Positions 7,125 through 38,709 of a DNA stretch of 64,000 nucleotides are shown here, piece by piece. A program made the translations under genes and the position numbers. How positions within the stretch are numbered: the first letter of the stretch is position 1; every line of letters begins with the position of its first letter. Where the stretch lies: the NCBI GenBank assembly GCA_963790205.1, contig CAWBNQ010000001.1, positions 192,001 through 256,000 on the forward strand, written 5' to 3'. This DNA is from Nitrospirota bacterium (GTDB lineage Bacteria > Nitrospirota > UBA9217). The notes beneath the pieces were generated by a model. That model ran no database searches, was not told the DNA's origin, and saw nothing but the letters and a program-made list of their open reading frames with translations.

Positions 7125-8669
7125 CTAATCCGCATTCCGCAATCCGCAATGCAAAATGCTTTTCCTGATTTCTTCACGCGCGGCCTCGCGGTCGTCGTAA
7201 TGGATTTTCGTGTTCCCGATGATCTGATAATCTTCGTGCCCTTTTCCCGCGAGCACGACCACGTCGCCGGGTTTCGCCATGCCGATCGCCGCGGCCACCG
7301 CAGTCTGCCGGTCGGGAATGACAGCGTACGGCGTCCTTCCTCGAACAGGGTCCGGCGCCGCATCAGGTGACGGCATTCTCATGCCCTCTGTCATGCCCTG
7401 CTCGATTTCGCCAATAATGCTCAGGGGGTCCTCGGTCCTCGGGTTATCAGAGGTGACGATCACGACATCGCTTCCGCGGATCGCGGCAGCGCCCATCTTC
7501 GGCCGCTTGGTCCGATCGCGGTCGCCTCCGCAGCCGAGGACCGTGATGATCCGCGAGCTCGCGAGCTCGCGCACCGCTTCAAGGAGACGGATGAGGGCAT
7601 CTTCGGTGTGCGCGTAGTCTACGACAACACCATAGGGCTGGCCCTCATCCACCTTTTCCATGCGGCCAGGAACGGCCTTCATATTTTTTATTCCGCGGCT
7701 GATCGCCTCCGTGCTGAAGCCCAGCGCCGTCCCGATCCCGACCGCAGTCAGGATGTTATGAATATTATGCCTTCCCACGAGCGGCGATTCTACGGGTACC
7801 GCACCCGACGGCGTAGTAACCTCGAAACTAAGACCGCGGATGCCGTGTTGAACGGTCCCTGCGGGCTGAACGTCCGCCCGGGCCGCCATGCCCGTCGTGA
7901 TGATCTTCGCCTTCGTTGCTTTGATTATTTCCCCGGCGCGTGCATCATCGAGATTGACCACTGCGCTCCGGTCCGGCGCAAGTCCGGAAAACAAGAGGAG
8001 CTTGGCCCGGAAATAAGCGTCCATGGTCCCGTGAAAATCAAGGTGGTCCTGGGTCAGGTTCGTGAACGCGGCGGCCGCAAATGTGCATCCGAGGGTCCTC
8101 CCGAGTTCAAGCGCGTGCGATGAGACCTCCATGACGCAGTGGGTCGCGCCGAGGCCGACCATTTCCGCAAGGAGCCGCTGGAGATCGAGCGATTCCGGCG
8201 TGGTGTTCGGCGCCGGGTACACGTTGTCGCCCACGCGGTAGTCGATGGTGCCGATCAGTCCGGCAGCGCCCCCTGCCGCCTCGATGATGGCTTTTACGAG
8301 GTAGGCCGTGGTGGTCTTGCCGTTCGTGCCGGTAATGCCGATGAGCGCGAGCTTCTGAGACGGATGGTCATAGAATGCATTCGCCAGAAGCGCGAGGGCC
8401 CGGCGCGAGTCTTCGACAACGATCTGCGGCGTGTTTGTGGCAGCCGCCGTACTGCTGTAACGCTCGGTGACCACGGCGACCGCACCCAGCTTTACGGCCT
8501 GTAAAATAAACAGGTGGCCGTCCGAGTGAAATCCTCGCACGGCCACAAAAAGGGAACCCGGTCTTACTTTCCGGGAGTCATAGGCAATATCCAGCACCTC
8601 CCTGTCCAGCCAGTCCGGCGGCAGAGACGATGGCCTTTCAAGCGTACCTGCTAATTCACCAAGCTTCAT
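7125..8669 (-). CDS. murE: UDP-MurNAc-dipeptide--meso-DAP ligase
   Basis: GITGTNGKTT, MEVSSH, DYAHT, DNPR (DAP-specificity motif) and AGKGHEDYQ. Confidence 0.97.
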   Translation of the reverse strand: MKLGELAGTLERPSSLPPDWLDREVLDIAYDSRKVRPGSLFVAVRGFHSDGHLFILQAVKLGAVAVVTERYSSTAAATNTPQIVVEDSRRALALLANAFYDHPSQKLALIGITGTNGKTTTAYLVKAIIEAAGGAAGLIGTIDYRVGDNVYPAPNTTPESLDLQRLLAEMVGLGATHCVMEVSSHALELGRTLGCTFAAAAFTNLTQDHLDFHGTMDAYFRAKLLLFSGLAPDRSAVVNLDDARAGEIIKATKAKIITTGMAARADVQPAGTVQHGIRGLSFEVTTPSGAVPVESPLVGRHNIHNILTAVGIGTALGFSTEAISRGIKNMKAVPGRMEKVDEGQPYGVVVDYAHTEDALIRLLEAVRELASSRIITVLGCGGDRDRTKRPKMGAAAIRGSDVVIVTSDNPRTEDPLSIIGEIEQGMTEGMRMPSPDAAPDPVRGRTPYAVIPDRQTAVAAAIGMAKPGDVVVLAGKGHEDYQIIGNTKIHYDDREAAREEIRKSILHCGLRNAD

Positions 8670-10398
8670 CGTGTCACCAGAAGCATCCTGCCTCCGTTGT
8701 CATCGGGCGGGACCTGGAGATATGCCAGGCTCTGCTCCGCAATCGACTTAAACACCGGAGCCGCCACGCTGCCGCCGTAGATGTCCCCTTCGGGGCTGTC
8801 GACCATTACGAGGATCACGAGCTTCGGCAAACCGGCCGGCACGAAGCCCGCAAAGGAGCTGACGTAATACTTCTTTGAATAAGCGCCGGTCCTCTGGTCG
8901 ATCTTCTGCGCCGTGCCGGTCTTTCCCGCGGCGGTATAGCCGGACGGCCGCGCCTTTTCGCCGGTCCCCGCTTCGACGACCCGTTGCAGCATCTTATTGA
9001 CCTTGGCGCAGGTCTCCTCGCTCATGACGCGGCCAACGGCCTGGGGTTGGAATGTCTTCCCCTCGTTTCCGTCACGGTCCACGATCTTGGCCACGATATA
9101 GGGCTTCATGAGCGTCCCGCCGTTCGCGAGCGCACAGTACGCCGCGGCCATCTGCAGGGGGGTCACGCCGATCCCCTGCCCGATGGCGATCTCGCCGAGC
9201 GATACGCCGGACCACAGTCGAGGGTCCTTGAGCAGGCCCGCGATCTCTCCGGGGATGTCCACGCCGGTCTTGCTGCCGAAGCCGAAGGCGGTGATGTATT
9301 TGTAGAACCGCTCCCTGCCGAGCCTGAGCGCCACCTTGATGGTGCCCACGTTGCTCGACTCGGCGATCACGTCCGTGAAGGTCAGCACGCCGTTTTTGTG
9401 CGCGTCGCTGATGACCCGGTCCGCGACCTTGATCTTGCCGGCGCTGCAGTCGACCCGTTCGAGGGGGTGGACGACCTTCTCTTCGAGCGCCGCGGCGGCC
9501 AGGACCGGCTTGAAGATCGAGCCCGGCTCGAACGCGTCCGCCACGCAGCGGTTCCGCCATTCCTCGGGCCGGTAGTGCTGCGGCTCGTTCGGGTTGAAGG
9601 GCTGACCGGAGCGGGTATGCGTACGCACGGCGAGCGCGAGCACCTCAGCGGTCCAGGGATTCATCACGATGCAGACGCCGCCCCTGGCCCGGGCCCTGGC
9701 GAGCGGCGGCATCAAGTTCTTTCTCGACGATGTGCTGGATCACCTCGTCGATCGTGAGGATGATGTCATGGCCCGGCTTCGGAAGCTTGTACTGAAAGCC
9801 GGGGCCGCCGGGAAAAACCGTCCTGCCCACGGCGTCCTTCTCGGCGAGCACCCATCCGCTCACGCCGCGAAGCGTCTTGTCGTAGGCAAGTTCCAGTCCT
9901 TCAAGACCTTCGTTGTCCATGCCGGTGAAACCAAGCACGGGAACCGGCCAGCGTCTTATTTGGATAGAACCGTCTCGATTCGGCTTGCAGGCCCACCTCG
10001 CTCGAGTCGAGGTCTTTCACCTTTCTGGCTTCGGCAGGCTCCACCTTGCGGCTGAGCCAGACAAAATGTTTGTCCCCGGCGAGCTTCCGCTCGAGCATGC
10101 GGGGGTTCTCGTGCAAAATCCGGGACAGCTGCCGGGCGACCTCCCGCGGGTCCTCTATCTTCGAGGGGACGCCGTAGACCGAATCAACGTCCAGGCTCAC
10201 GGCCAGTTCGCGCCCCATGCGGTCGTAGATGGTCCCCCGCGTGGGTTCGAGTTCCACCAGGCGCTCCTGCTGCCGCTCGGCGCGCGCCGCGAGTTCAGCC
10301 CGGTCGTAGACCTGGAGATAGACGAGCCTCAAGGCCACGAGCGCGAAGCCCAGGCCCGCTATCAAGAACACTGCAAGTATGCGTCCCCGTCTCTCCAT
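8666..10398 (-). CDS. ftsI: Penicillin-binding protein 3 (class B transpeptidase); two apparent frameshifts near 9945 and 9705
   Basis: RGTIYDR, GLEGLE, EPGSIFK (SxxK), SSN (SxN) and KTGTAQ spread across three adjacent ORFs. Confidence 0.93.
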
Positions 10399-26278: not shown

Positions 26279-26473
26279 TCAAACATTAAATGACCCTAAG
26301 ATGTTCGGGCAGTAGGCGTGGCAGATCCAGTTGTAGCGTTTGTTGACATGCTGGAGAGTGTTTAAAAAGTTGATCCGGTCCTGGTCGCTCTTGAACACAG
26401 CCTTCTTTTCATTGCCGCGGGAAGTGATATGATAAACAGCACCGGCGTACTCTATGCGGAGAGGACGGGCCAT
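26279..26473 (-). pseudogene. REP-associated tyrosine transposase (RAYT, Y1 HUH family), N-terminal fragment
   Basis: MARPLRIEYAGAVYHITSRGN...HAYC, then breaks off before the HUH motif; TTGACA-17-TATTTT promoter just upstream. Confidence 0.85.
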
Positions 26474-26519
26474 AATGGCTGGAAAATAGCAGGGGAAAAG
26501 GCCAATGTCAACAGTAAAG

Positions 26520-26648
26520 GGGCTGTTGCCCAAACTATTTTTTGTCACCCTGAGCAAAGTGAAGGGTCTGCAATCATATTGTAAATGCGAGATTCTTCGC
26601 TGCGCTCAGAATGACATTTTGGGCGCAAAGTGATTTGGGCAACAGCCC
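26520..26648. mobile_element. 129-bp MITE with IS1182-type ends
   Basis: Terminal IRs gggctgttgcccaaa/tttgggcaacagccc identical to the IS at 27447-29045; 6-bp direct repeat GTAAAG at 26514-26519 and 26649-26654. Confidence 0.9.
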
Positions 26649-26654
26649 GTAAAG

Positions 26655-27320: not shown

Positions 27321-27446
27321 TTAAACCTCCTTTCTAAACACTACATATAAATAGCTAATAGAGGCAAGAATCAATGAAGTCAGGAGCATTACCCGCGCCT
27401 ATTGATGATCCTGTTTATCTAATAACCATGGGTGTCAAATCTTCAC

Positions 27447-29045
27447 GGGCTGTTGCCCAAAGGACTTCCCGCGAACGATCAAGCGCCTTGATGCGTAAAG
27501 AGGTCTAAGCTAATGACGGGCAATATCGGTTCTGTCTCAAGGGAATATGCAAAATGAGCGATCCGAAAGCCTTTGCCACTGTTCTTTGAACAACGAGCAG
27601 CCGTACCGCAGCTGCTTTCTTCGGCTTGGAAGCATGCGCTATTAGCACTTGCATGTTCTGGATGGCACAGGTCATATATTCCTGGACCCGCATTCGCCAA
27701 AGGCCTCGCCAGCGTGCTTGATCGAAGCCGTATCGGGTGCCCCTGGCAAAGGATCGCTCCATCAGGTGTTGTCTGGTTTTGATGTCGTACCGTGCATTGG
27801 CTGATCGACTGATTGCACGCATGCGCTCCAGAACATTCTGCCGGAGATGACGCTTGATCGTTCGGCCGGACTTGTTTTTCGTGCATTGCTCTCTAAGCTG
27901 GCACGCTGCGCAGACTTTCCTGGGCGCTGCGTAATCCCGGCTTTGTCTGGCTATATGCAGCGACTTCGGCTTGAGCTGAGTTCCTGCCGGGCACATATAG
28001 GAGTCGGTGGCAGGATCATAGGAAAATCTATCTTCCATAAAGATGTCGGTTTTCGCTATGCGATTGATCGCCACGTCTCGTAAATCCGGGATATGCGCCT
28101 TTATGCCCTTGTCATGGCAGGCAAGGAAGTTGTCGATCGTTCCGTACTTACTGTCCGCAACAACCGTTTCGGCCTCGACTTCCGTTGTTGCGTGGTGTTG
28201 CTCAAGCAGCGAAAGCATCAGATGGGCTTCGTTCACATCGCCGGGCGCTACGTCGGTTGCAGTGATGATTTCTTTTTTACCGTCAACGGCCCGATGCACT
28301 TGGTAGGAAAGTTTGGATTTCCCCCGGTTCACCAGGGCCGCGTCCGGGTCGGTGGTGGAGATATAGCGGTTGTTCTTTTTTTCGTAGGTCCTGGAAGGAT
28401 CAGTGCTTTCGGTGCGTTCTTCCAAGCGGGCTTCCAGCTTTTTATAATTTTTGTGCAACTGATGTTTCAGGTTCCGGGTATCGAGAACCGAACTGTTGGA
28501 GGCATTTGCATCCACCAGACTGGAGTCGACGAAGATCTTGCGGCCGTCAATAAGACCGGCTTCCGCGCACTGCAGAACAATACGTTCGAAGAACCTTTGA
28601 AAAACATCGAGGCCCCATTTTTTGCGGGCCTTGGATAGCACGCTATGGTTGGGAATTTCAGAATCAAGGTCATACCCGAGAAACCAGAGCCAATCCATAC
28701 GCTCTGGCAGGGTGTCCATCAGCTCCCGCTCCGAGCGGACATTATAAAAGATCAGGAGTAGCATCAGTTTCAGGATAATTGGTGGTGGCACTGAAACGTT
28801 GCCGTTGTTGCCGTACAAGTCCTTGACTTCGTCATAGGCGAAGTTGAAATCGATCAGCGTATTGACTTTTCTCAAAGGATGGTTCTCACGAACCCGTTTT
28901 TCTATATTGATGCCGATATAGAACAAGCTGCTTTGAGGCGGTTGCTGCAATCCCATCATGGCTATTGGCTCCTGATGTCGTGATTGACGTCGCAGCAATA
29001 TAGCATTACTGAGTGGCTTTCTCAATATCATTTGGGCAACAGCCC
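27447..29045 (-). mobile_element. IS1182-family insertion sequence
   Basis: 15-bp perfect terminal IRs flanking one transposase; no target duplication visible. Confidence 0.9.
27505..28959 (-). CDS. IS1182-family DDE transposase
   Basis: HPLR..., SERELM, PNHSVLS, VDSSLVDANAS, TDPDA, VADSKYG, CPAG...C..C..REQC and ERSFA motifs. Confidence 0.92.
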   Translation of the reverse strand: MMGLQQPPQSSLFYIGINIEKRVRENHPLRKVNTLIDFNFAYDEVKDLYGNNGNVSVPPPIILKLMLLLIFYNVRSERELMDTLPERMDWLWFLGYDLDSEIPNHSVLSKARKKWGLDVFQRFFERIVLQCAEAGLIDGRKIFVDSSLVDANASNSSVLDTRNLKHQLHKNYKKLEARLEERTESTDPSRTYEKKNNRYISTTDPDAALVNRGKSKLSYQVHRAVDGKKEIITATDVAPGDVNEAHLMLSLLEQHHATTEVEAETVVADSKYGTIDNFLACHDKGIKAHIPDLRDVAINRIAKTDIFMEDRFSYDPATDSYMCPAGTQLKPKSLHIARQSRDYAAPRKVCAACQLREQCTKNKSGRTIKRHLRQNVLERMRAISRSANARYDIKTRQHLMERSFARGTRYGFDQARWRGLWRMRVQEYMTCAIQNMQVLIAHASKPKKAAAVRLLVVQRTVAKAFGSLILHIPLRQNRYCPSLA

Positions 29046-29728
29046 GTAGATGGATGACCCTGAAGGCGTCGTTGTTCAAAAGCGAGAACGAACATTTCTG
29101 CTTCCTTGCCAAGCTCTCCCTGACGGGCCAATTGGCTTTTTAGTTCTGAAAGTGTGAGCTTTCTCTTCGAGCTCATACTGCTCTCTTTTAGAGAATCTAC
29201 GACCAAAATCTGGAAAAGTTCGGAGGAATTCTGGCTGACGAATAGATTGTTTGATCTTAGTAGGGTATCCCTTTCAAAAAACCCGACCGATATCAACAGG
29301 TTTCTTATGGCAAAGAATCGAAGTGGGATAAGACTTCCCTTAACATAGAAGCAGTTTCTTCCGATATCAAATCTTAAGGCGTCCGGATTGATAAAATCAG
29401 CTATAGCGCCATCGCGCCTCAACGATAGGAAAAGACCTTTAATGAAATCACCCTGTTCAAGGTAATTATGTTGATTATCGATTTTAGCTGGTTCGAAAAG
29501 ATCGGTGTTTATTGAAACGATGTCATCGGATATAGTGATGAATGTCATGAACTCCAGCAGCTTCAACATCCCGACGAAAGATCTACTTATCGAGAAGTGG
29601 TTCGAGGCGCAGTACTTCTTGAGGTCGGATACATTTTGATTCCTGGATAAAGGAAGAGCCTTGAAAATCAAGAACAGTAACTCTTCCTTGCTACCGAGGC
29701 TATCATATTTGAGAAGATCTTCTAACAT
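29046..29728 (-). pseudogene. Probable DUF3883/NO-VEIN-type nuclease gene, truncated by IS1182
   Basis: Ends GELGKEAEMFVLAFEQRRL, resembling the helix that opens DUF3883 domains, directly at the IS end; overlaps the SNF2 gene. Confidence 0.6.
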
Positions 29729-31697
29729 AATCGCGAATTATTGCCTTAATATCGCTCTCCAGGTCAATATCGTAATCCATATTCTCGCTGAACAGTGGAA
29801 TCTCTTGGCTCTCTATAAGTTCAAGCATGCGTTGTTCCTTTTCAGCCAGCCTAAGGTGTATGGTCTCATCTATCGTATTTCTTGCAATGACATAATGATA
29901 ATAGGTCGTAGTATGGGGATCTAGACCAACACGATGAATTCTGTCTTTAGATTGTATGAAATGTGTCGCATTGAAGGTGCGTTCCAAATAGATAGCATTG
30001 TGAGCAGCCTTATGTAAAGAAATCGATTCCGAGACTGCAAATGGATTCGCAATGATTACCTTGAATGGCGAATTAGGCTGGTGAAACTCATGGATGATCT
30101 TCTCGCGTGTTAAAATGCTCTCCATTGGTACATCGTCTCTCTCAACCGGCACTTCCCCAATCAATAGCCTGGATTCGATCCCATGCTGCGTCAAGTAATT
30201 TTGAAGTTCTTTGATATTCTGAATAAAAGTACCCCAAATTATGACCTTCTCGTTCCTAGCGAGCAGGTCAACCACAATATCTTTCACTACTGTAAATTTA
30301 TGGGGAACACTCTCAAGCTCTGAGTAGTGCATGATTTTCTTGATGACCTCTGTGTCGTCTATATACAGCTCATCGCGCAATCCTTGGTCTCGAAAGAAGG
30401 TCTCGAGGGGCTGTCTAAGAAGATTTGGATTTGTAGCGGCTTGCATCAGTCGGATGAACCGTGCTTTTGTGAGCTCGGAATTCAAAGACAGGGACGTGTC
30501 GGTGCTACTGAAGTATGCTAAGTATTTATTTTCAATGAACTCGTAGATTTCACGCTGAACGGGTCCCATTTCTACGTAGGCTGGGGCAAGGTTAACAGCA
30601 GGAGGCAGGTTCAGATGGCTTTTTCTGATTCTTACAAAATAAGGCGAGACATTTTCAATAAGCTGGCTAATACGTGGGTCATATCGGTTGCTTGACATGT
30701 CTTTCAACTGGTATACGGAAAAGTCTACAATCTCCTTCCCCGGCCAGATAAATTCAAAGAGATTATAGATGTCTTCATATCCATTAGGGAGCGGCGTTCC
30801 CGTTAACACAACCCGCGAGCAACAGTATTTCGAAATGCTCAAGGCCGCCTGTGCCCACATACCGCCTTCGACATTTTTTATCCGATGTGCTTCATCAAGA
30901 ACAACCATAACTTTATTTTCAGAACGCTTTAAATAATGGATAAGACCCGAGAGATTGTACGAGAGGCTCTGATAAGACATCAATGTCAATTCGGGTGTAT
31001 CTTCTACCTTTTCAAAGGACAAGAGGTGCCTATCTCTCTCTTCTTTGGGCATTCCACCTGAAAGTCTTATTGCGTTCGGCTCGCGGCCGAAACACAGAGT
31101 AAATTCATCCTCCCAAGGTCCAAATGAGCTTAATGGACCAATCACTAAGAGTTTGTTGACTCTTTTAGGATGTTCATAAGGCAGACTGTTTAGATAGGCG
31201 AAGGCTGCATAAACAATAGACGTCTTGCCCGCTCCTGGAACAGAAAAATTACATGCATTTTGAGAAAAGGCTAAATGGAAAGCTGAAAGAAGTTGTTTAT
31301 CATACAACGTTCGTTTTGGCAACTTACGATCAACCAACTCCTTAAATTCTCTAAACTCTTTTTCGTCTAATTCATTATTCCATATGCCTCTAGCTTTGCG
31401 GCTGAATTGCTTGAAATTCTCCCTCTCCCTATAATAGAAAGTAAGGACTTTCATTATCTGATCAGAATCGGTTTGCTGTATCCCATATTTTTTTAACGAG
31501 TCATGTATTTTTTTTAGTATTTGCTCCTTGTCTTCATTTAAGTAAGGCACAACAATAGTTCCGGCAGTGTTAAAAACCGCCTTGAGATAATCACGAAAGA
31601 AATACTTTGCGCGATAATTCTTTGAGATGATATCAGTGTCACCCGAAAGAATGAAGTTATTCTGCTGCTCATCGATTGAGAGTTCAACAGAGGCCAT
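29703..31697 (-). CDS. SNF2-family (SF2) helicase/ATPase
   Basis: SVPGAGKT (Walker A), LDEAH, LTGTP, RLMQAATNP and QSKDRIHRVG (motif VI). Confidence 0.92.
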   Translation of the reverse strand: MASVELSIDEQQNNFILSGDTDIISKNYRAKYFFRDYLKAVFNTAGTIVVPYLNEDKEQILKKIHDSLKKYGIQQTDSDQIMKVLTFYYRERENFKQFSRKARGIWNNELDEKEFREFKELVDRKLPKRTLYDKQLLSAFHLAFSQNACNFSVPGAGKTSIVYAAFAYLNSLPYEHPKRVNKLLVIGPLSSFGPWEDEFTLCFGREPNAIRLSGGMPKEERDRHLLSFEKVEDTPELTLMSYQSLSYNLSGLIHYLKRSENKVMVVLDEAHRIKNVEGGMWAQAALSISKYCCSRVVLTGTPLPNGYEDIYNLFEFIWPGKEIVDFSVYQLKDMSSNRYDPRISQLIENVSPYFVRIRKSHLNLPPAVNLAPAYVEMGPVQREIYEFIENKYLAYFSSTDTSLSLNSELTKARFIRLMQAATNPNLLRQPLETFFRDQGLRDELYIDDTEVIKKIMHYSELESVPHKFTVVKDIVVDLLARNEKVIIWGTFIQNIKELQNYLTQHGIESRLLIGEVPVERDDVPMESILTREKIIHEFHQPNSPFKVIIANPFAVSESISLHKAAHNAIYLERTFNATHFIQSKDRIHRVGLDPHTTTYYHYVIARNTIDETIHLRLAEKEQRMLELIESQEIPLFSENMDYDIDLESDIKAIIRDYVRRSSQI

Positions 31698-31699
31698 TG

Positions 31700-33049
31700 T
31701 TAATCATCCGATCCGCGCTTAATTGCTTGTTGAAAGTTCCAAACAATAGTATTTATTTCTTTTAAGAGAGAGAGAACATTAGGGTCATCGATGAAAGCTT
31801 TTGAATTGACGTCAATCGATTCTAATGTGCTCTTGGCCCGCTTTAACAAATCCATAGGTTCTTCCTGTTGGTTCTTAAGATCAAGTCTATATCTCGTTTG
31901 TCCAAGATTTTTCTTTAGGTGCACGGAAGTTTCTTTTGCCCAGGCTTCGTCTCTATATTTTAATAATTGGTCTAGCTTTTCATCGGGATTTTGTCGTCGC
32001 AATTTGTCTACTGCCAGCTCTCCATCTTCGAACTTTGCCCGAATAGAATCGATGTTATTGAAATGATTGGTTCTGAATTCTTCCCAAATCTCTTTCGAGC
32101 TAAAAAAACTCCCTCTTTTACTTGTTTGACCTATATACCTATAATCCTTTGAGTCGCCGCTACCCATTATCCCTTCGTCGTCATCATTTTTTTTGGCCTT
32201 GTTGTAGATTGCTCGTATGTAATCGAAATAGATGAGTTTTAGGTCGTTAAGATCGCTGTCGTCATAGTTCCACTGGATCATCTTTGATCGCCGGCCTTTG
32301 TATCTATCCAGATAGCCATCCAGATCAACAAAGGTACCTTCTGTTTTGTTGAGCCTTGTGTAAATTCCAGAGTTCCCTGTTTTCTCTAAATACTCATTCA
32401 TTAATTCCATGATTGATAAATATTCTTTGATAGCTGGCGATTTTTCACCCATCATCTGAGCAATTTCTGCGATTCCTTTTTCGCCAGGATAATATTCGAT
32501 TAGATCTTTGCACTTCAAATACTTCTCTATTGGATCATAATCTACTTTTGCGTCTTCACCCATTTGAAACGTGGTCTCAAGCCTCATTATTTCTGGAGGG
32601 TTCTCATTCAATTCTTCTTCTAATACAACGCCAAGGAAATATACCGGTTGCTCTTTCTTTTTTTCTGCTACCCTTGATAGCAGCAGCGCTCGCCTATTAC
32701 CATCAATTATCACACCATCCTTCGTAACTATGCCATACTTAAGCTGGCCCTGATTCAGCAAACTTTCGAAAGTGTTTTTATTACTTTCTTTGCTTGCCTC
32801 CTCAAGGAACTGCTCAATAATTAATTTATCGTCGTTATTCGTTGGGTCAAGTGTCTTGCCCTCTTGCTTCTCATACGATTTGACACGACTTGCAATTCGT
32901 CCGTTTAAGGAGTTGTAAATCAGATAGTCAAGATTTATCTCGTAAACCGGCATTTTTTGTCGCTTGCCTTTGTAATAGACTTCCATTGAACCATAGGGTT
33001 CTTTCTTTAGTAACTGGACAAAATAATCTATCCGCTGTGCTTTGTTCAT
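31700..33049 (-). CDS. ParB/Srx-like N-terminal domain protein with long helical C-terminus
   Basis: YN..NGRI, GQLKYGIV and GVIIDGNRR (GxxR-type ParB motif); HTH-like EIAQMMG segment. Confidence 0.7.
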   Translation of the reverse strand: MNKAQRIDYFVQLLKKEPYGSMEVYYKGKRQKMPVYEINLDYLIYNSLNGRIASRVKSYEKQEGKTLDPTNNDDKLIIEQFLEEASKESNKNTFESLLNQGQLKYGIVTKDGVIIDGNRRALLLSRVAEKKKEQPVYFLGVVLEEELNENPPEIMRLETTFQMGEDAKVDYDPIEKYLKCKDLIEYYPGEKGIAEIAQMMGEKSPAIKEYLSIMELMNEYLEKTGNSGIYTRLNKTEGTFVDLDGYLDRYKGRRSKMIQWNYDDSDLNDLKLIYFDYIRAIYNKAKKNDDDEGIMGSGDSKDYRYIGQTSKRGSFFSSKEIWEEFRTNHFNNIDSIRAKFEDGELAVDKLRRQNPDEKLDQLLKYRDEAWAKETSVHLKKNLGQTRYRLDLKNQQEEPMDLLKRAKSTLESIDVNSKAFIDDPNVLSLLKEINTIVWNFQQAIKRGSDD

Positions 33050-34761
33050 TTTTTCTCTCCATTCGCTATTGAACTTATTTTGTTAATTGCGTATAGAGCC
33101 ATAACTTGCTTTTTAGGCATTGATTTCTTCTTGAACAATCTCAGCTCGTTTTGGTCAAAGTTCGACTCTTCCGTTACGAGCGCATCAATGATCTGTGCGA
33201 TCCAATGGACCAGCTCAACAGGTTCAATATACTTCCCACTGTTACGCTGAACCTCAAACATCTCCTGAAGTAATTCGGATTTCGCAACCTTTTCAGAAAA
33301 GCCATTATTTATTACATTTATGAATCTTGGGCCTTCTTCGAACTTCAAGATGAGTGGTTTCAGCTTCTTGTAATATCCGTCCAAAAAAGCCCTAATAAAG
33401 AACCCTTCACCTGTTCCGTGCTGCACTGAGGTCTTCCACTTCCCTCTATTTTTGCTATTTCGTCTAATGTCGTAGTTAGATAATGTTACAGTAAAATTTC
33501 CATGCTTGAATGGATGCCTTCTAAACCTCGACCCCTTCTTTCTTCTTGGTGGGTTATCAAAGCGCTTTTGCTCGAACGTGTTCAGGTTGGGTACCTCATC
33601 TAGTGGGCCAACTGTGTTCTTAACTAGAGGATCGGTGATCTTTTCAAATCCATACACCTCTCTAACCGCTCTAGCAAATGCCCTGCTAACAGGAGGACAA
33701 ACAGCATTACCGACTATCATCCATTTATTCCCCTCTGAACCGATGAACTGAAACGTAATAGGAAATCCCATCAAAGTAGCTGCCTCTCTAATCGTTGGAG
33801 TGCGGTACTCGCCATCGCCTTTTCTCTCATACTCTGAGGGGAAAATAATTGCTTCACGGGAGTTTCCAATCTTTGTCGCGGTAATAGTCCTGCTTGGTCG
33901 ATCTTCCCTTTCAGGGAATGACATTAGCCCCATGTATGGATGATTAGTCTTTAAAAATTTTGATCCTTTCCAGTCACAAGCATATAACCCCGTGTCGTAA
34001 AATTGGTCGATTAATTCAGTTTGTTTGATCCTGATGCTTGGATACAATGGATCGCTGACGTATTCTTCTGATTTCTTTGCGTTTGGCCTCGGTAATTGTT
34101 GCCGCACATGTCCTAGCGTTATATGGGTCGGCAAAGCAGCGTCATCCTGTGGCGTGCGGTGTGTTCTTTCAGGGCACACATGCTTTTTCTTTTTAATTAT
34201 CTCGCCTGTAAAAACCCTCTTTCTCGACTGAGGTACTCCAAAATCTGCTGAGTTAATTATTGACCGATTTTCTTCAAGGGAAATCGCAATATCTTTAGGT
34301 TCGAAACCATGTTCCAACGCCCACTTCTTCAACCCTAGTTGATCAAATCTATACTGTTTGGGAAGATGGACCATCGAGTTACTTACATTTTCCATGAACC
34401 AAGCCTTAAGCTTGGAATGCGATTTATGCTTTTTTAAGGCAACGACTTTGAGAAATATCTTTGTAAGTTTGAGACCTTTCGATTTATCAGCCTTTCCCGA
34501 CTTGTTGGAACTCGAAAAGCTCACGCAAGGTGGACTTCCGATTATCACGTCCGTATCAGGCAGCTCTTCAATTCGCTTAATAGAGGTTTCAAACTCAAGG
34601 ACATTACGGGGCTTGCATTCAAGCCCAAAATTGAAATTGAAGCTGTCGATTGCAGGCTTCCAACTGTCAATTCCGCAAACTATCTCGAATCCTTGTTGTC
34701 TGAATCCCTCCGAGAATCCGCCTGCGCCACAAAAGAGATCCATTACAGTGAGCTTGCTCAT
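33046..34761 (-). CDS. DNA (cytosine-5)-methyltransferase with C-terminal extension
   Basis: Motifs I DLFCGAGG, IV GSPPC, VI ENV, VIII QSRKR, IX REAATLMGFP, X GNAVCP. Confidence 0.95.
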   Translation of the reverse strand: MSKLTVMDLFCGAGGFSEGFRQQGFEIVCGIDSWKPAIDSFNFNFGLECKPRNVLEFETSIKRIEELPDTDVIIGSPPCVSFSSSNKSGKADKSKGLKLTKIFLKVVALKKHKSHSKLKAWFMENVSNSMVHLPKQYRFDQLGLKKWALEHGFEPKDIAISLEENRSIINSADFGVPQSRKRVFTGEIIKKKKHVCPERTHRTPQDDAALPTHITLGHVRQQLPRPNAKKSEEYVSDPLYPSIRIKQTELIDQFYDTGLYACDWKGSKFLKTNHPYMGLMSFPEREDRPSRTITATKIGNSREAIIFPSEYERKGDGEYRTPTIREAATLMGFPITFQFIGSEGNKWMIVGNAVCPPVSRAFARAVREVYGFEKITDPLVKNTVGPLDEVPNLNTFEQKRFDNPPRRKKGSRFRRHPFKHGNFTVTLSNYDIRRNSKNRGKWKTSVQHGTGEGFFIRAFLDGYYKKLKPLILKFEEGPRFINVINNGFSEKVAKSELLQEMFEVQRNSGKYIEPVELVHWIAQIIDALVTEESNFDQNELRLFKKKSMPKKQVMALYAINKISSIANGEKK

Positions 34762-35249
34762 TTACTCCTCTTTTGATTGACCGAAAGTAATTCTTCAACC
34801 CGCGTGACCGACCGCTGCATGTTCTTTTTCAGTTGGCACTCCCATATTGTCAGCACTTTCCAACCTGCTCGCCTCAACTGCAAAACCTTTATCTTATCAC
34901 GACTGACATTCTTTCTGAACTTCTGTTTCCAGAAGGCACTATGCGACTTTGGAAGATTAGGTCGACAATAAGGGCAGCTGTGCCAGAAGCATCCGTTCAT
35001 GAAAACTGCGATCTTTCTGGATGGGAAAGCAATATCTGGCCTACCAGGTGCCTTTTTCCAATTCACCCTATAGCCCCTAATGCCGTCCTTCCAAAGAGCT
35101 CTCCTTAGTGTTAGTTCCGGTTGTGTATCTCTCCCCTTGTTTGCACTCATGACCCTAGACGTACTTTCCCTGAGAGGCAGGGGGGCACGTCCATCTCTTA
35201 TAAAAAAATCTCGCGAGGGAGAATTCATATCTTTAAACATCGCTTGCAT
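34758..35249 (-). CDS. vsr: Very-short-patch repair endonuclease
   Basis: MSANKGRDTQPE, GRPDI, GCFWH.C, FWKQK...N..RD and GWKVLTIWECQ motifs. Confidence 0.95.
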   Translation of the reverse strand: MQAMFKDMNSPSRDFFIRDGRAPLPLRESTSRVMSANKGRDTQPELTLRRALWKDGIRGYRVNWKKAPGRPDIAFPSRKIAVFMNGCFWHSCPYCRPNLPKSHSAFWKQKFRKNVSRDKIKVLQLRRAGWKVLTIWECQLKKNMQRSVTRVEELLSVNQKRSK

Positions 35250-36783: not shown

Positions 36784-37110
36784 CTACGCCGCCGCCTTGT
36801 GCGCTTCCACGCGGAGCTTTACGCGCTCGTTCGTCTGCAGGATCTTGATGATCTCCAGGATATTGTCCGCCCGGGGATTCCCGCGCGGCCCCAGCATGCG
36901 ATGCACGCTCTTGTCCGTCTTCTTGAGCTTCTTCGCGAGCTGCTGGAACGTGATGGTCGCGTTGATGTAGTCGCGCAGCATGGCCTTGCCTGCGTCAAGA
37001 TCGCCGGCGAGCAGTTCGTTCACGGCTTCGGTCAGCATTTGCCTTCTGAATGCCGGATCATTTAATGCTCGGTCCATAATGGTTGTTCTGAATTTACGCG
37101 TTACGGGCAT
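36784..37110 (-). CDS. Addiction-module antidote (HTH) protein, no adjacent toxin
   Basis: DPAFR..ML.EA...LLAGD...GKAMLRDYINATI.F..LA...KSVHRMLGPRGNP motif. Confidence 0.75.
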   Translation of the reverse strand: MPVTRKFRTTIMDRALNDPAFRRQMLTEAVNELLAGDLDAGKAMLRDYINATITFQQLAKKLKKTDKSVHRMLGPRGNPRADNILEIIKILQTNERVKLRVEAHKAAA

Positions 37111-37689: not shown

Positions 37690-38709
37690 TCATCCAAAGC
37701 ACTTCTCAGGCATGAATGATACCCCGTCCCGCATGATGTAATAGGCCGCTCTCGCCAGCTTGTGCGCGAGGGCGTTATGCGCCACCATCCTATTTGTTTT
37801 CTGCGACTTGCGGTTGAAATATGCCCGTGCGGCCTCATCTTCGCGACGTGCAATCTCAGCAGCCTCGGAGAAGGCCCATGCTAGATACTTATTGCCGCAC
37901 TTCTTGTTTCCTTTGCCCTTCTTTTTCTCGTTGCTGATCCACTTTGTCGATACCTTCCGGCAATAGGATGCGAAGTTGCCGACCTGAGCAAAGCGGCTGA
38001 CCGGGCCGGTCTCCAGCATGATAGTAAGACCCAGGATCTTGCCGATTCCTGGAATGGTACGAAGTCCTCCGTATCCTTCCCGGAGATCCATTTTCTTTGC
38101 GAGAACACGCTCGACGGTTTTGATCTGGCGCGTCAGAAAGTCTATGGAATCCTTGCTCACCTGGCCGGCCAACGCCAGGTCTTCGTTGTGTTCGAGAAAA
38201 GGGGCAACGCGATTCGTTCGTAACGCTTTCACATCGTTCACCTTGAGCTTGATCCCGTTATTGCGCGTGACGATGTTCTGGAGTCCTAATATCAGTGAGG
38301 TCCGTACTCTCACCAGATGCGCCCTCTTCCGAAGGAGATCACGGACAGGTCGGTCCTCCTTCGGATAGATATATCCTTCCAGCAGAATTCCCAGGCGAAG
38401 CATCTCGGCCAGCCAGAAAGCGTCGTCCTGATCATCGGAGTACTTGAGCCCGGTGTACTTTTGAATCTCCGCAGGATTGGCTAAATGAACAGGATAGCCT
38501 TCCTCCATGAGTAAGTCCACGAGCCAGTACCAGTTGAATGTGGACTCGACGACAATACCGACGATCTGCTTCTTGTACAGTTTCAGGGTAGCGAGAATGA
38601 CCTCGGGATCATTCGCCAACTTCTTTTTGAATACTCGTTTGCCGTTCTCTTCCTTGATGCCTACATACGTGTTGCTTGAATGCAGATCTAAACCAACGTA
38701 TAATCTCAT
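37690..38709 (-). CDS. IS110-family DEDD recombinase/transposase
   Basis: VGLDLH, VEST, KYSDDQDDA, TIPGIG..LGLTI..E, WISN (catalytic Ser region) and ALAHKLAR motifs. Confidence 0.95.
   Translation of the reverse strand: MRLYVGLDLHSSNTYVGIKEENGKRVFKKKLANDPEVILATLKLYKKQIVGIVVESTFNWYWLVDLLMEEGYPVHLANPAEIQKYTGLKYSDDQDDAFWLAEMLRLGILLEGYIYPKEDRPVRDLLRKRAHLVRVRTSLILGLQNIVTRNNGIKLKVNDVKALRTNRVAPFLEHNEDLALAGQVSKDSIDFLTRQIKTVERVLAKKMDLREGYGGLRTIPGIGKILGLTIMLETGPVSRFAQVGNFASYCRKVSTKWISNEKKKGKGNKKCGNKYLAWAFSEAAEIARREDEAARAYFNRKSQKTNRMVAHNALAHKLARAAYYIMRDGVSFMPEKCFG

Follow-up and report, generated by a model that had tools for sequence, protein, structure and literature searches.

A ParB-fold/SNF2 cassette beside a cytosine methylase: a candidate methylation-gated defence system related to AbiR, with a copy likely inactivated by IS1182 in a Nitrospirota genome

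The closest described relative of the locus treated here is AbiR of the Lactococcus lactis plasmid pKR223. In the accessible text of its description, AbiR comprises a sigma70-like protein (AbiRa), a ParB-like protein superposed on structure 5K5D (AbiRb) and a protein with an endonuclease domain and an SNF2 ATPase (AbiRc); it depends on the methylase LlaKR2I, is toxic without it, and is classed as abortive with a reported anti-phage phenotype, its mechanism being given as unknown (PMC13064643). Lowered replication of phage DNA is a further mark of AbiR. AbiRc, as an SNF2 protein, is included in DefenseFinder according to an excerpt of bioRxiv 2024.02.29.582594, and an AbiRb/c-like pair without AbiRa was left unassigned in SAR11 in the available part of that report (PMC13712998). 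The present analysis concerns a five-gene cassette in a 64,000-nucleotide stretch (hereafter the window) of a Nitrospirota genome (assembly GCA_963790205.1, contig CAWBNQ010000001.1, positions 192,001 to 256,000). With moderate confidence it is read as an AbiR-related methylase/ParB-fold/SNF2/effector cassette for methylation-gated, restriction-like defence against phages or plasmids, whose local copy is likely inactive through the insertion sequence (IS) IS1182. The cassette and the adjoining element are laid out as follows, in window coordinates:

34758..35249, minus strand: vsr (PF03852, E=2e-22; TIGR00632 over its cut-off)
33046..34761, minus strand: C5 cytosine methyltransferase, 571 residues (PF00145, E=1e-41)
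33046..33639, minus strand: C-terminal extension (tail) of the methylase, about 190 residues, of no known family, a candidate docking or reader module
31700..33049, minus strand: ParB-like gene, 449 residues (predicted fold and invariant residues)
29703..31697, minus strand: SNF2-family ATPase, 664 residues (PF00176 and PF00271)
29047..29728, minus strand: gene 5, the effector, truncated (64% identical over 227 residues to residues 3-229 of the homologue in locus L007)
27446..29046, minus strand: IS1182-family element, 1601 bp (NF033551 over its cut-off)

The five minus-strand open reading frames (ORFs) described as co-oriented and tightly spaced in an earlier note on this DNA are all present, with the junctions it gave: vsr/dcm and dcm/parB each overlap by 4 bp, the SNF2 gene follows after 2 bp, and it overlaps gene 5 by 26 bp. 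Its identifications of Vsr, the C5 methylase and SNF2 score above Pfam cut-offs. The ParB-like gene has only a sub-threshold ddrB-ParB match in Pfam, and PADLOC and NCBIfam returned only domain-level matches for the five genes (for the methylase, among 25 of 55 PADLOC matches). The block is indeed AT-rich (GC content 0.417, the genome mean being 0.552 +/- 0.034; 4 of 1379 intervals of 6.2 kb are equally low) and lies in an IS-rich island, IS1182, a 131-bp miniature inverted-repeat transposable element (MITE) and IS110 being found around it.

AbiR was compared through its published description, with loci of AbiR architecture serving as a proxy for its own sequences. Both systems have a ParB-like gene followed by an SNF2 gene and tied to a C5 methylase, which here adjoins the ParB-like gene, and by proxy the cassette ParB protein and AbiRb share 5K5D as top structure. 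They differ in that AbiRa (sigma70-like, ~820 residues) is not among the five cassette genes, and in that AbiRc carries an N-terminal PLD-type nuclease, whereas no PLD domain is present at the N-terminus of the cassette SNF2 protein. The cassette has instead a separate winged-helix effector with a DUF3883 or TIR domain, and its first core gene is a methylase with a 190-residue tail, Vsr being optional. In locus L181, which has the AbiR architecture (a 965-residue sigma70-r4 protein, ParB, PLD-SNF2, a C5 methylase and a MutH-type restriction endonuclease, or REase), the ParB protein is 28% identical to that of the window over 207 residues (E 8e-21) and the PLD-SNF2 protein 32% identical to the window SNF2 over 566 residues (E 2e-72); AbiRa-like sigma70-type proteins were found in L084 and L181. 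Five streptococcal loci (L183-L186, L188) combine a tailed methylase, ParB and PLD-SNF2 with no gene 5, their methylases being 40-41% identical to the window methylase over the full length in the two compared, and these hybrids form, by sequence, a direct bridge between the two layouts. ParB-SNF2 also occurs with type III Mod-Res (L085, L182) and with an N4/N6 methylase plus a NOV_C gene (L189, L190). An unannotated 200-residue protein stands in the effector slot after type III restriction-modification (RM) genes, ParB and SNF2 at L085:13103-13708 and L182:11585-12199.

With neither AbiRa nor the PLD domain, the cassette counts as an AbiR-related variant rather than AbiR itself, and is apparently a widespread, still unnamed variant of the AbiR kind. 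The proposal in the earlier note that the system is undescribed thus holds for its architecture but not for its kind, the core being homologous to AbiR-type ParB and SNF2. PADLOC 2.0 fails to detect ParB and AbiRa-like proteins in L084 and L181, so its blank on the cassette is uninformative; neither the ParB nor the effector subunit has a model in it, and counts of such loci are therefore probably too low.

Relatives were sampled as the best 80 of 277 GTDB loci (82 ParB genes) and the best 79 of 184 metagenome loci (80 ParB genes), and the counts below are not independent because several loci are duplicates or close kin. The labels of the GTDB set name 15 bacterial phyla; one further record is archaeal and one has no label. 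The order methylase, ParB, SNF2, effector, which the earlier note had proposed to test across genomes, is conserved among them. SNF2 directly follows ParB in 75 of 82 GTDB cases (a hydrolase in six, a contig end in one) and in 72 of 80 metagenome cases, and gene 5 follows SNF2 in 68 of the 71 cases that have a downstream gene. A C5 methylase is present in 79/80 GTDB and 65/79 metagenome loci, a conserved linkage to a DNA methylase. Methylation-linked defence, as had been suggested, is the likeliest role. Vsr, which had been counted as a member of the system, is present here and otherwise accessory (30/80 GTDB and 27/79 metagenome loci). Among Pfam-annotated immediate neighbours, 32 of 64 belong to defence, toxin-antitoxin or mobile classes, against 0 of 30 backbone genes of the window, the classing being our own and lenient and the control small; the 64 come from 108 of the 127 GTDB immediate neighbours that were scanned together, the other 19, or their cluster members, having been scanned separately. 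The streptococcal methylase-ParB-PLD-SNF2 hybrids all lie directly after an 883-residue valyl-tRNA synthetase gene, a site that is likely an insertion hotspot.

The cassette occurs patchily (2 of 61 relatives, 4 of 301 genomes from the host phylum and, in the family to which G061 belongs, 10 of 301), which is in keeping with a defence role, and is carried on one prophage and also on plasmids. Together with the low GC content and the loss of the effector beside an intact methylase in the present copy, this would also suit a selfish addiction island, in which the methylase is the antidote and ParB-SNF2-nuclease the poison, the mobile island being kept by post-segregational killing and defence being incidental. 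Neighbourhoods rich in other defence genes, and the anti-phage phenotype reported for AbiR in the accessible text of PMC13064643, speak against this explanation, which is considered unlikely as an account of its own; addiction and defence roles are in any case compatible, not exclusive.

The label ParB-like in the earlier note proved apt, the protein being predicted to have a real fold of the ParB N-domain type, together with the arginines of box II and a helix-turn-helix (HTH). Its AlphaFold model has a predicted local distance difference test score (pLDDT) of 93; Foldseek ranks Noc, ParB and KorB first, and VIA-align gives 5K5D with Z 10.1 (root-mean-square deviation 3.9, 211 residues aligned), PadC with 9.1 and KorB with 9.0. 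The HTH lies near residues 172-225 and the C-terminus is helical. N46, N49, R51, Q102, N118, R119, R120, E158 and Q162 are invariant in 112 diverse homologues, N118-R119-R120 and E158/Q162 being what we take to be ParB boxes II and III. Sequence searches of PDB with the ParB alignment gave nothing significant, and a single-protein query of viral contigs found no relatives. Homologues number at least 1813 at 90% clustering and at least 1104 at 50%. In the SNF2 protein, the Walker A and DEAH-type motifs are conserved in 72 aligned sequences.

Such a fold, with its HTH and its matches to Noc, ParB and KorB, might also serve a non-defence transaction at methylated sites, such as partitioning, repair or regulation, and Vsr is itself a repair enzyme. 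However, no ParA was found among the clustered neighbours of the GTDB loci, and with nuclease, TIR and hydrolase effectors in a defence-rich context, this explanation is very improbable. In a separate ParB clade, the next gene encodes a PGAP1-like alpha/beta hydrolase and SNF2 is missing (L024, L044, L050, L051, L062, L074, L090, L106; 6 GTDB and 3 metagenome loci, one in common). The pair is found next to a full cassette, next to a tailed methylase alone, or solitary (L090), and is possibly a two-gene defence system.

The catalytic PC and ENV motifs of the methylase are invariant in 51 aligned sequences, and the cassette methylases form one clade in a tree, with a conserved target-recognition (variable) region. 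The tail is found on 62 methylases across the 80 GTDB loci and on no other protein there, had no Atlas match above 0.80, and as part of a methylase stands before 59 of the 82 GTDB ParB genes. The tail and an REase-like gene are almost mutually exclusive (tail only in 61, both in 1 and REase only in 17 GTDB loci; 44, 0 and 15 in metagenomes; together once among 106 tailed loci), which suggests that the slot before parB holds an exchangeable DNA reader; the switch between the two requires 4 changes on the ParB tree. Loci with a tailless methylase carry a DpnII/BanI-like, Sau3AI/MutH-like or BglII-like gene in 17 of 17 GTDB and 15 of 21 metagenome cases. In the DpnII-like partners, the acidic catalytic residues of two DpnII-family references are replaced in 23 of 23, on a weak alignment, and a PDB sequence search with the DpnII-like alignment gave nothing significant. 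DpnII-, Sau3AI/MutH- and BglII-type REase families, BanI excepted, recognise GATC-containing sites, and in REase-type loci the system genes hold fewer GATC sites than expected, with ratios to expectation of 0.52 and 0.47 where the flanks have 0.77 and 0.78, a count from which the near-duplicates L028, L048, L050, L053 and L079 were dropped and in which the DpnII-like group is essentially one clade.

The idea that the tail is a degenerate REase was not supported by profile comparison, no profile match being obtained with the DpnII-like proteins, the C-half of Sau3AI, the gene 5 N-terminus, the BglII-like proteins or the AbiRa C-terminus. One further protein, at L088:11921-13459 (512 residues, annotated MutH/Sau3AI), resembles the Sau3AI C-half in its N-part and the AbiRa-like C-terminus in its C-part, and is a candidate chimeric reader. 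A resemblance between the AbiRa-like C-terminus and the Sau3AI C-half themselves proved wrong, as the former matches only this chimeric-looking protein.

Gene 5 of the window has no Pfam match, and its earlier description as a DUF3883-type nuclease stands through its full-length relatives, which measure 310-350 residues. Among 64 aligned effectors, 57 carry NOV_C (DUF3883), six carry TIR, and the window copy carries neither. In the predicted structure of the L007 homologue, a winged-helix region at the N-terminus is followed by a long helix and then by a PD-(D/E)xK domain; the best structural match has Z 9.0, and those to winged helices score 6-7.5. The six TIR loci form a single clade on the ParB tree. 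As judged from its domains, the effector slot is exchangeable, a DUF3883 nuclease or a TIR domain being set on a shared winged-helix N-terminus; the nuclease that had been proposed as the effector is thus the choice of most relatives, but can be replaced by TIR, and the local active site is lost. Among 7996 candidates for longer gene 5 fusions, one TIR protein was found, which is weak evidence. Effectors of 492-494 residues occur at L146:6554-8035 and also in L154, L158, L159 and L161; they are longer at the C-terminus by about 180 residues, for which Pfam gave no match at 1e-9.

The TIR effectors bear on the main rival explanation, a guard or abortive infection system in which ParB-SNF2 monitors the methylase or host methylation and triggers cell death once a phage blocks methylation or swamps the cell with unmethylated sites. 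They keep a glutamate at what is presumably the catalytic position. In Thoeris, a ThsA effector stands beside the TIR gene, and the flanks examined at five of the six TIR loci, 39 proteins in all, gave no ThsA match at E 1e-15. A guard would also fit the pairing of ParB with the hydrolase, which weakly matches Lamassu LmuA, the association of the ParB-SNF2 module with many methylase types (C5, N4/N6, type III Mod), and the abortive classification of AbiR and its toxicity without the methylase (PMC13064643, accessible text). Against it, 57 of 64 effectors are putative DNases, and in most loci the cassette is the sole nuclease beside the methylase, so that there is no separate RM system to guard. 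The guard explanation is held to be rather improbable.

The copy in the window is truncated. Gene 5 ends after codon 227, directly against IS1182; the earlier note had let the system begin at 29046, which matches the end of the IS, and had not described the gene as broken. All 57 nuclease-type relatives share E213, D246, E263 and K265. Of these residues only E213 is left in the window copy, the winged-helix N-terminus and the linker helix being kept and most of the DUF3883/NOV_C domain gone. Because the element cuts the gene before three of the four catalytic residues, the local cassette is probably dead and this copy likely inactive. IS1182 has 15 copies in the genome, 12 of them with a 4-bp target duplication; those without are the copy adjoining gene 5, one other and one at a contig end. 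The lack of a duplication at gene 5 indicates that adjoining DNA was likely deleted, and since the remainder of the gene is found neither beyond the IS nor elsewhere in the assembly, a deletion, which probably arose by recombination between IS1182 copies, is the simplest reading. Public contigs from four runs include none spanning the junction, so an assembly artefact at this boundary is possible. The target preference of IS1182 is a spaced palindrome, most flanks showing GTC, five bases, the 4-bp duplication, five bases and GAC.

Gene content, linkage, conserved residues, swaps and the truncation are observed, and the binding and activation steps of the favoured restriction-like mechanism are all ones that we infer. 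First, the methylase would mark host sites with 5-methylcytosine (5mC), and Vsr would repair the resulting T:G mismatches. Second, the reader encoded just ahead of parB, in this genome the tailed methylase and elsewhere a catalytically degenerate DpnII-like or an AbiRa-like protein, would bind unmethylated sites on incoming DNA. Third, the ParB-fold protein may close on DNA in a nucleoside triphosphate (NTP)-dependent manner and slide or accumulate as a clamp, after which the SNF2 ATPase would be recruited and translocate. Finally, the winged-helix domain would bring in the effector, whose PD-(D/E)xK domain would cut the DNA; in the TIR variants, clustered TIR domains may destroy NAD+ and arrest the cell.

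Several observations weigh against this mechanism. The DpnII alignment is weak (hhalign probability 7.5%, E 0.005), and site-avoidance scans yielded no target motif for the tailed methylase. Across 48 complete loci, the Spearman correlation of distances is 0.27 for ParB and methylase and 0.34 for ParB and tail, and this speaks against a close lock-and-key fit of the tail to ParB; with 0.74 for ParB and SNF2 and 0.66 for SNF2 and effector, the ParB-SNF2-effector trio seems to travel jointly and the methylase to be exchanged. A short methylase without a recognised REase is found in six metagenome loci; 14 others in that set, mostly short contigs, have no visible methylase, and L090, L084 and L187 show none in 15-18 kb. 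Many of the loci are duplicated or closely related. The TIR and hydrolase effectors leave DNA uncut and suit a suicide or guard role equally.

A bolder generalisation, put forward tentatively, is that ParB-type clamps act as an immune relay: the reader, which could be a tailed methylase, a dead restriction enzyme, AbiRa or type III RM, would be exchangeable and would load clamps at unmethylated sites, and crowded clamps would switch on a plug-in effector (DNase, PLD nuclease, TIR NADase or lipase-like hydrolase). If so, AbiR would be one branch of the family, and its 25-year-old mechanism would become directly testable. If the ParB protein is a clamp at all, NTP-gated sliding clamps would extend from segregation and gene regulation to immunity. 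TIR in the place of the nuclease would connect methylation sensing to NAD+ depletion. In any event, the cassette turns the single lactococcal example of AbiR into a broad modular family, to which the present genome contributes no more than a broken specimen; the mechanism can be tested because cultured strains carry the operon intact and in compact form.

Around the cassette, the 131-bp MITE at 26519-26649 has the same terminal repeats as IS1182 and 5 genome copies, its inner part being highly repeated in peat metagenomes. A short ORF at 26279-26460, without a Pfam match, presumably resembles the start of a REP-associated tyrosine transposase, and an HTH protein at 36784-37110, with weak HTH matches, resembles what we take to be an orphan addiction-module antitoxin. 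IS110 at 37690-38709 has 2 copies in the genome. Farther away, murG at 808-1885 is split into two ORFs and the penicillin-binding protein gene at 8666-10398 is a short transpeptidase-only ORF, both probably through assembly indel errors.

The absence of components of DISARM, BREX and type I systems, stated earlier, was borne out by domain searches. DISARM is defined by DrmA, DrmB (DUF1998) and DrmC; only DrmMII matched the methylase, DrmD fell far under its cut-off, and no such cluster is present in the 80 loci. BREX is defined by PglZ and BrxC, neither of which was matched among the five genes or the clustered neighbours. For type I Zorya, defined by ZorA/ZorB with ZorD, the ZorD match reached 52 bits against a cut-off of 1500, and no ZorA/B match was found. 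No description of the methylase-ParB-SNF2-effector layout was found in the literature, subscription papers lying mostly outside the coverage, and the accessible parts of PMC3632139, PMC10853773, PMC12839542, PMC3710099, bioRxiv 2024.10.26.620412, PMC6458302 and PMC8765062 do not describe the four-gene layout.

Among the remaining known systems, Hma, or the restriction-like system of Gao, consists in the available text of a DUF499 ATPase, a DUF1156 methylase and an SNF2-DUF3883 fusion (PMC11232893). The cassette is like it in having SNF2 and a DUF3883 nuclease beside a methylase; it differs in encoding SNF2 and nuclease separately, in having a C5 enzyme of PF00145 as its methylase, and in possessing a ParB-fold protein but no DUF499 ATPase. 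With the CTP-dependent sliding clamps ParB, Noc and KorB the cassette protein shares the predicted fold, the HTH and the invariant box residues, but it has no ParA partner and a longer helical C-terminus; the ParB fold also binds ATP or GTP, according to the accessible part of bioRxiv 2025.10.10.680097. Type II 5mC RM with Vsr likewise has a C5 methylase, Vsr and a PD-(D/E)xK nuclease, whereas in the cassette the nuclease is linked to a ParB protein and an SNF2 motor and is replaceable by TIR.

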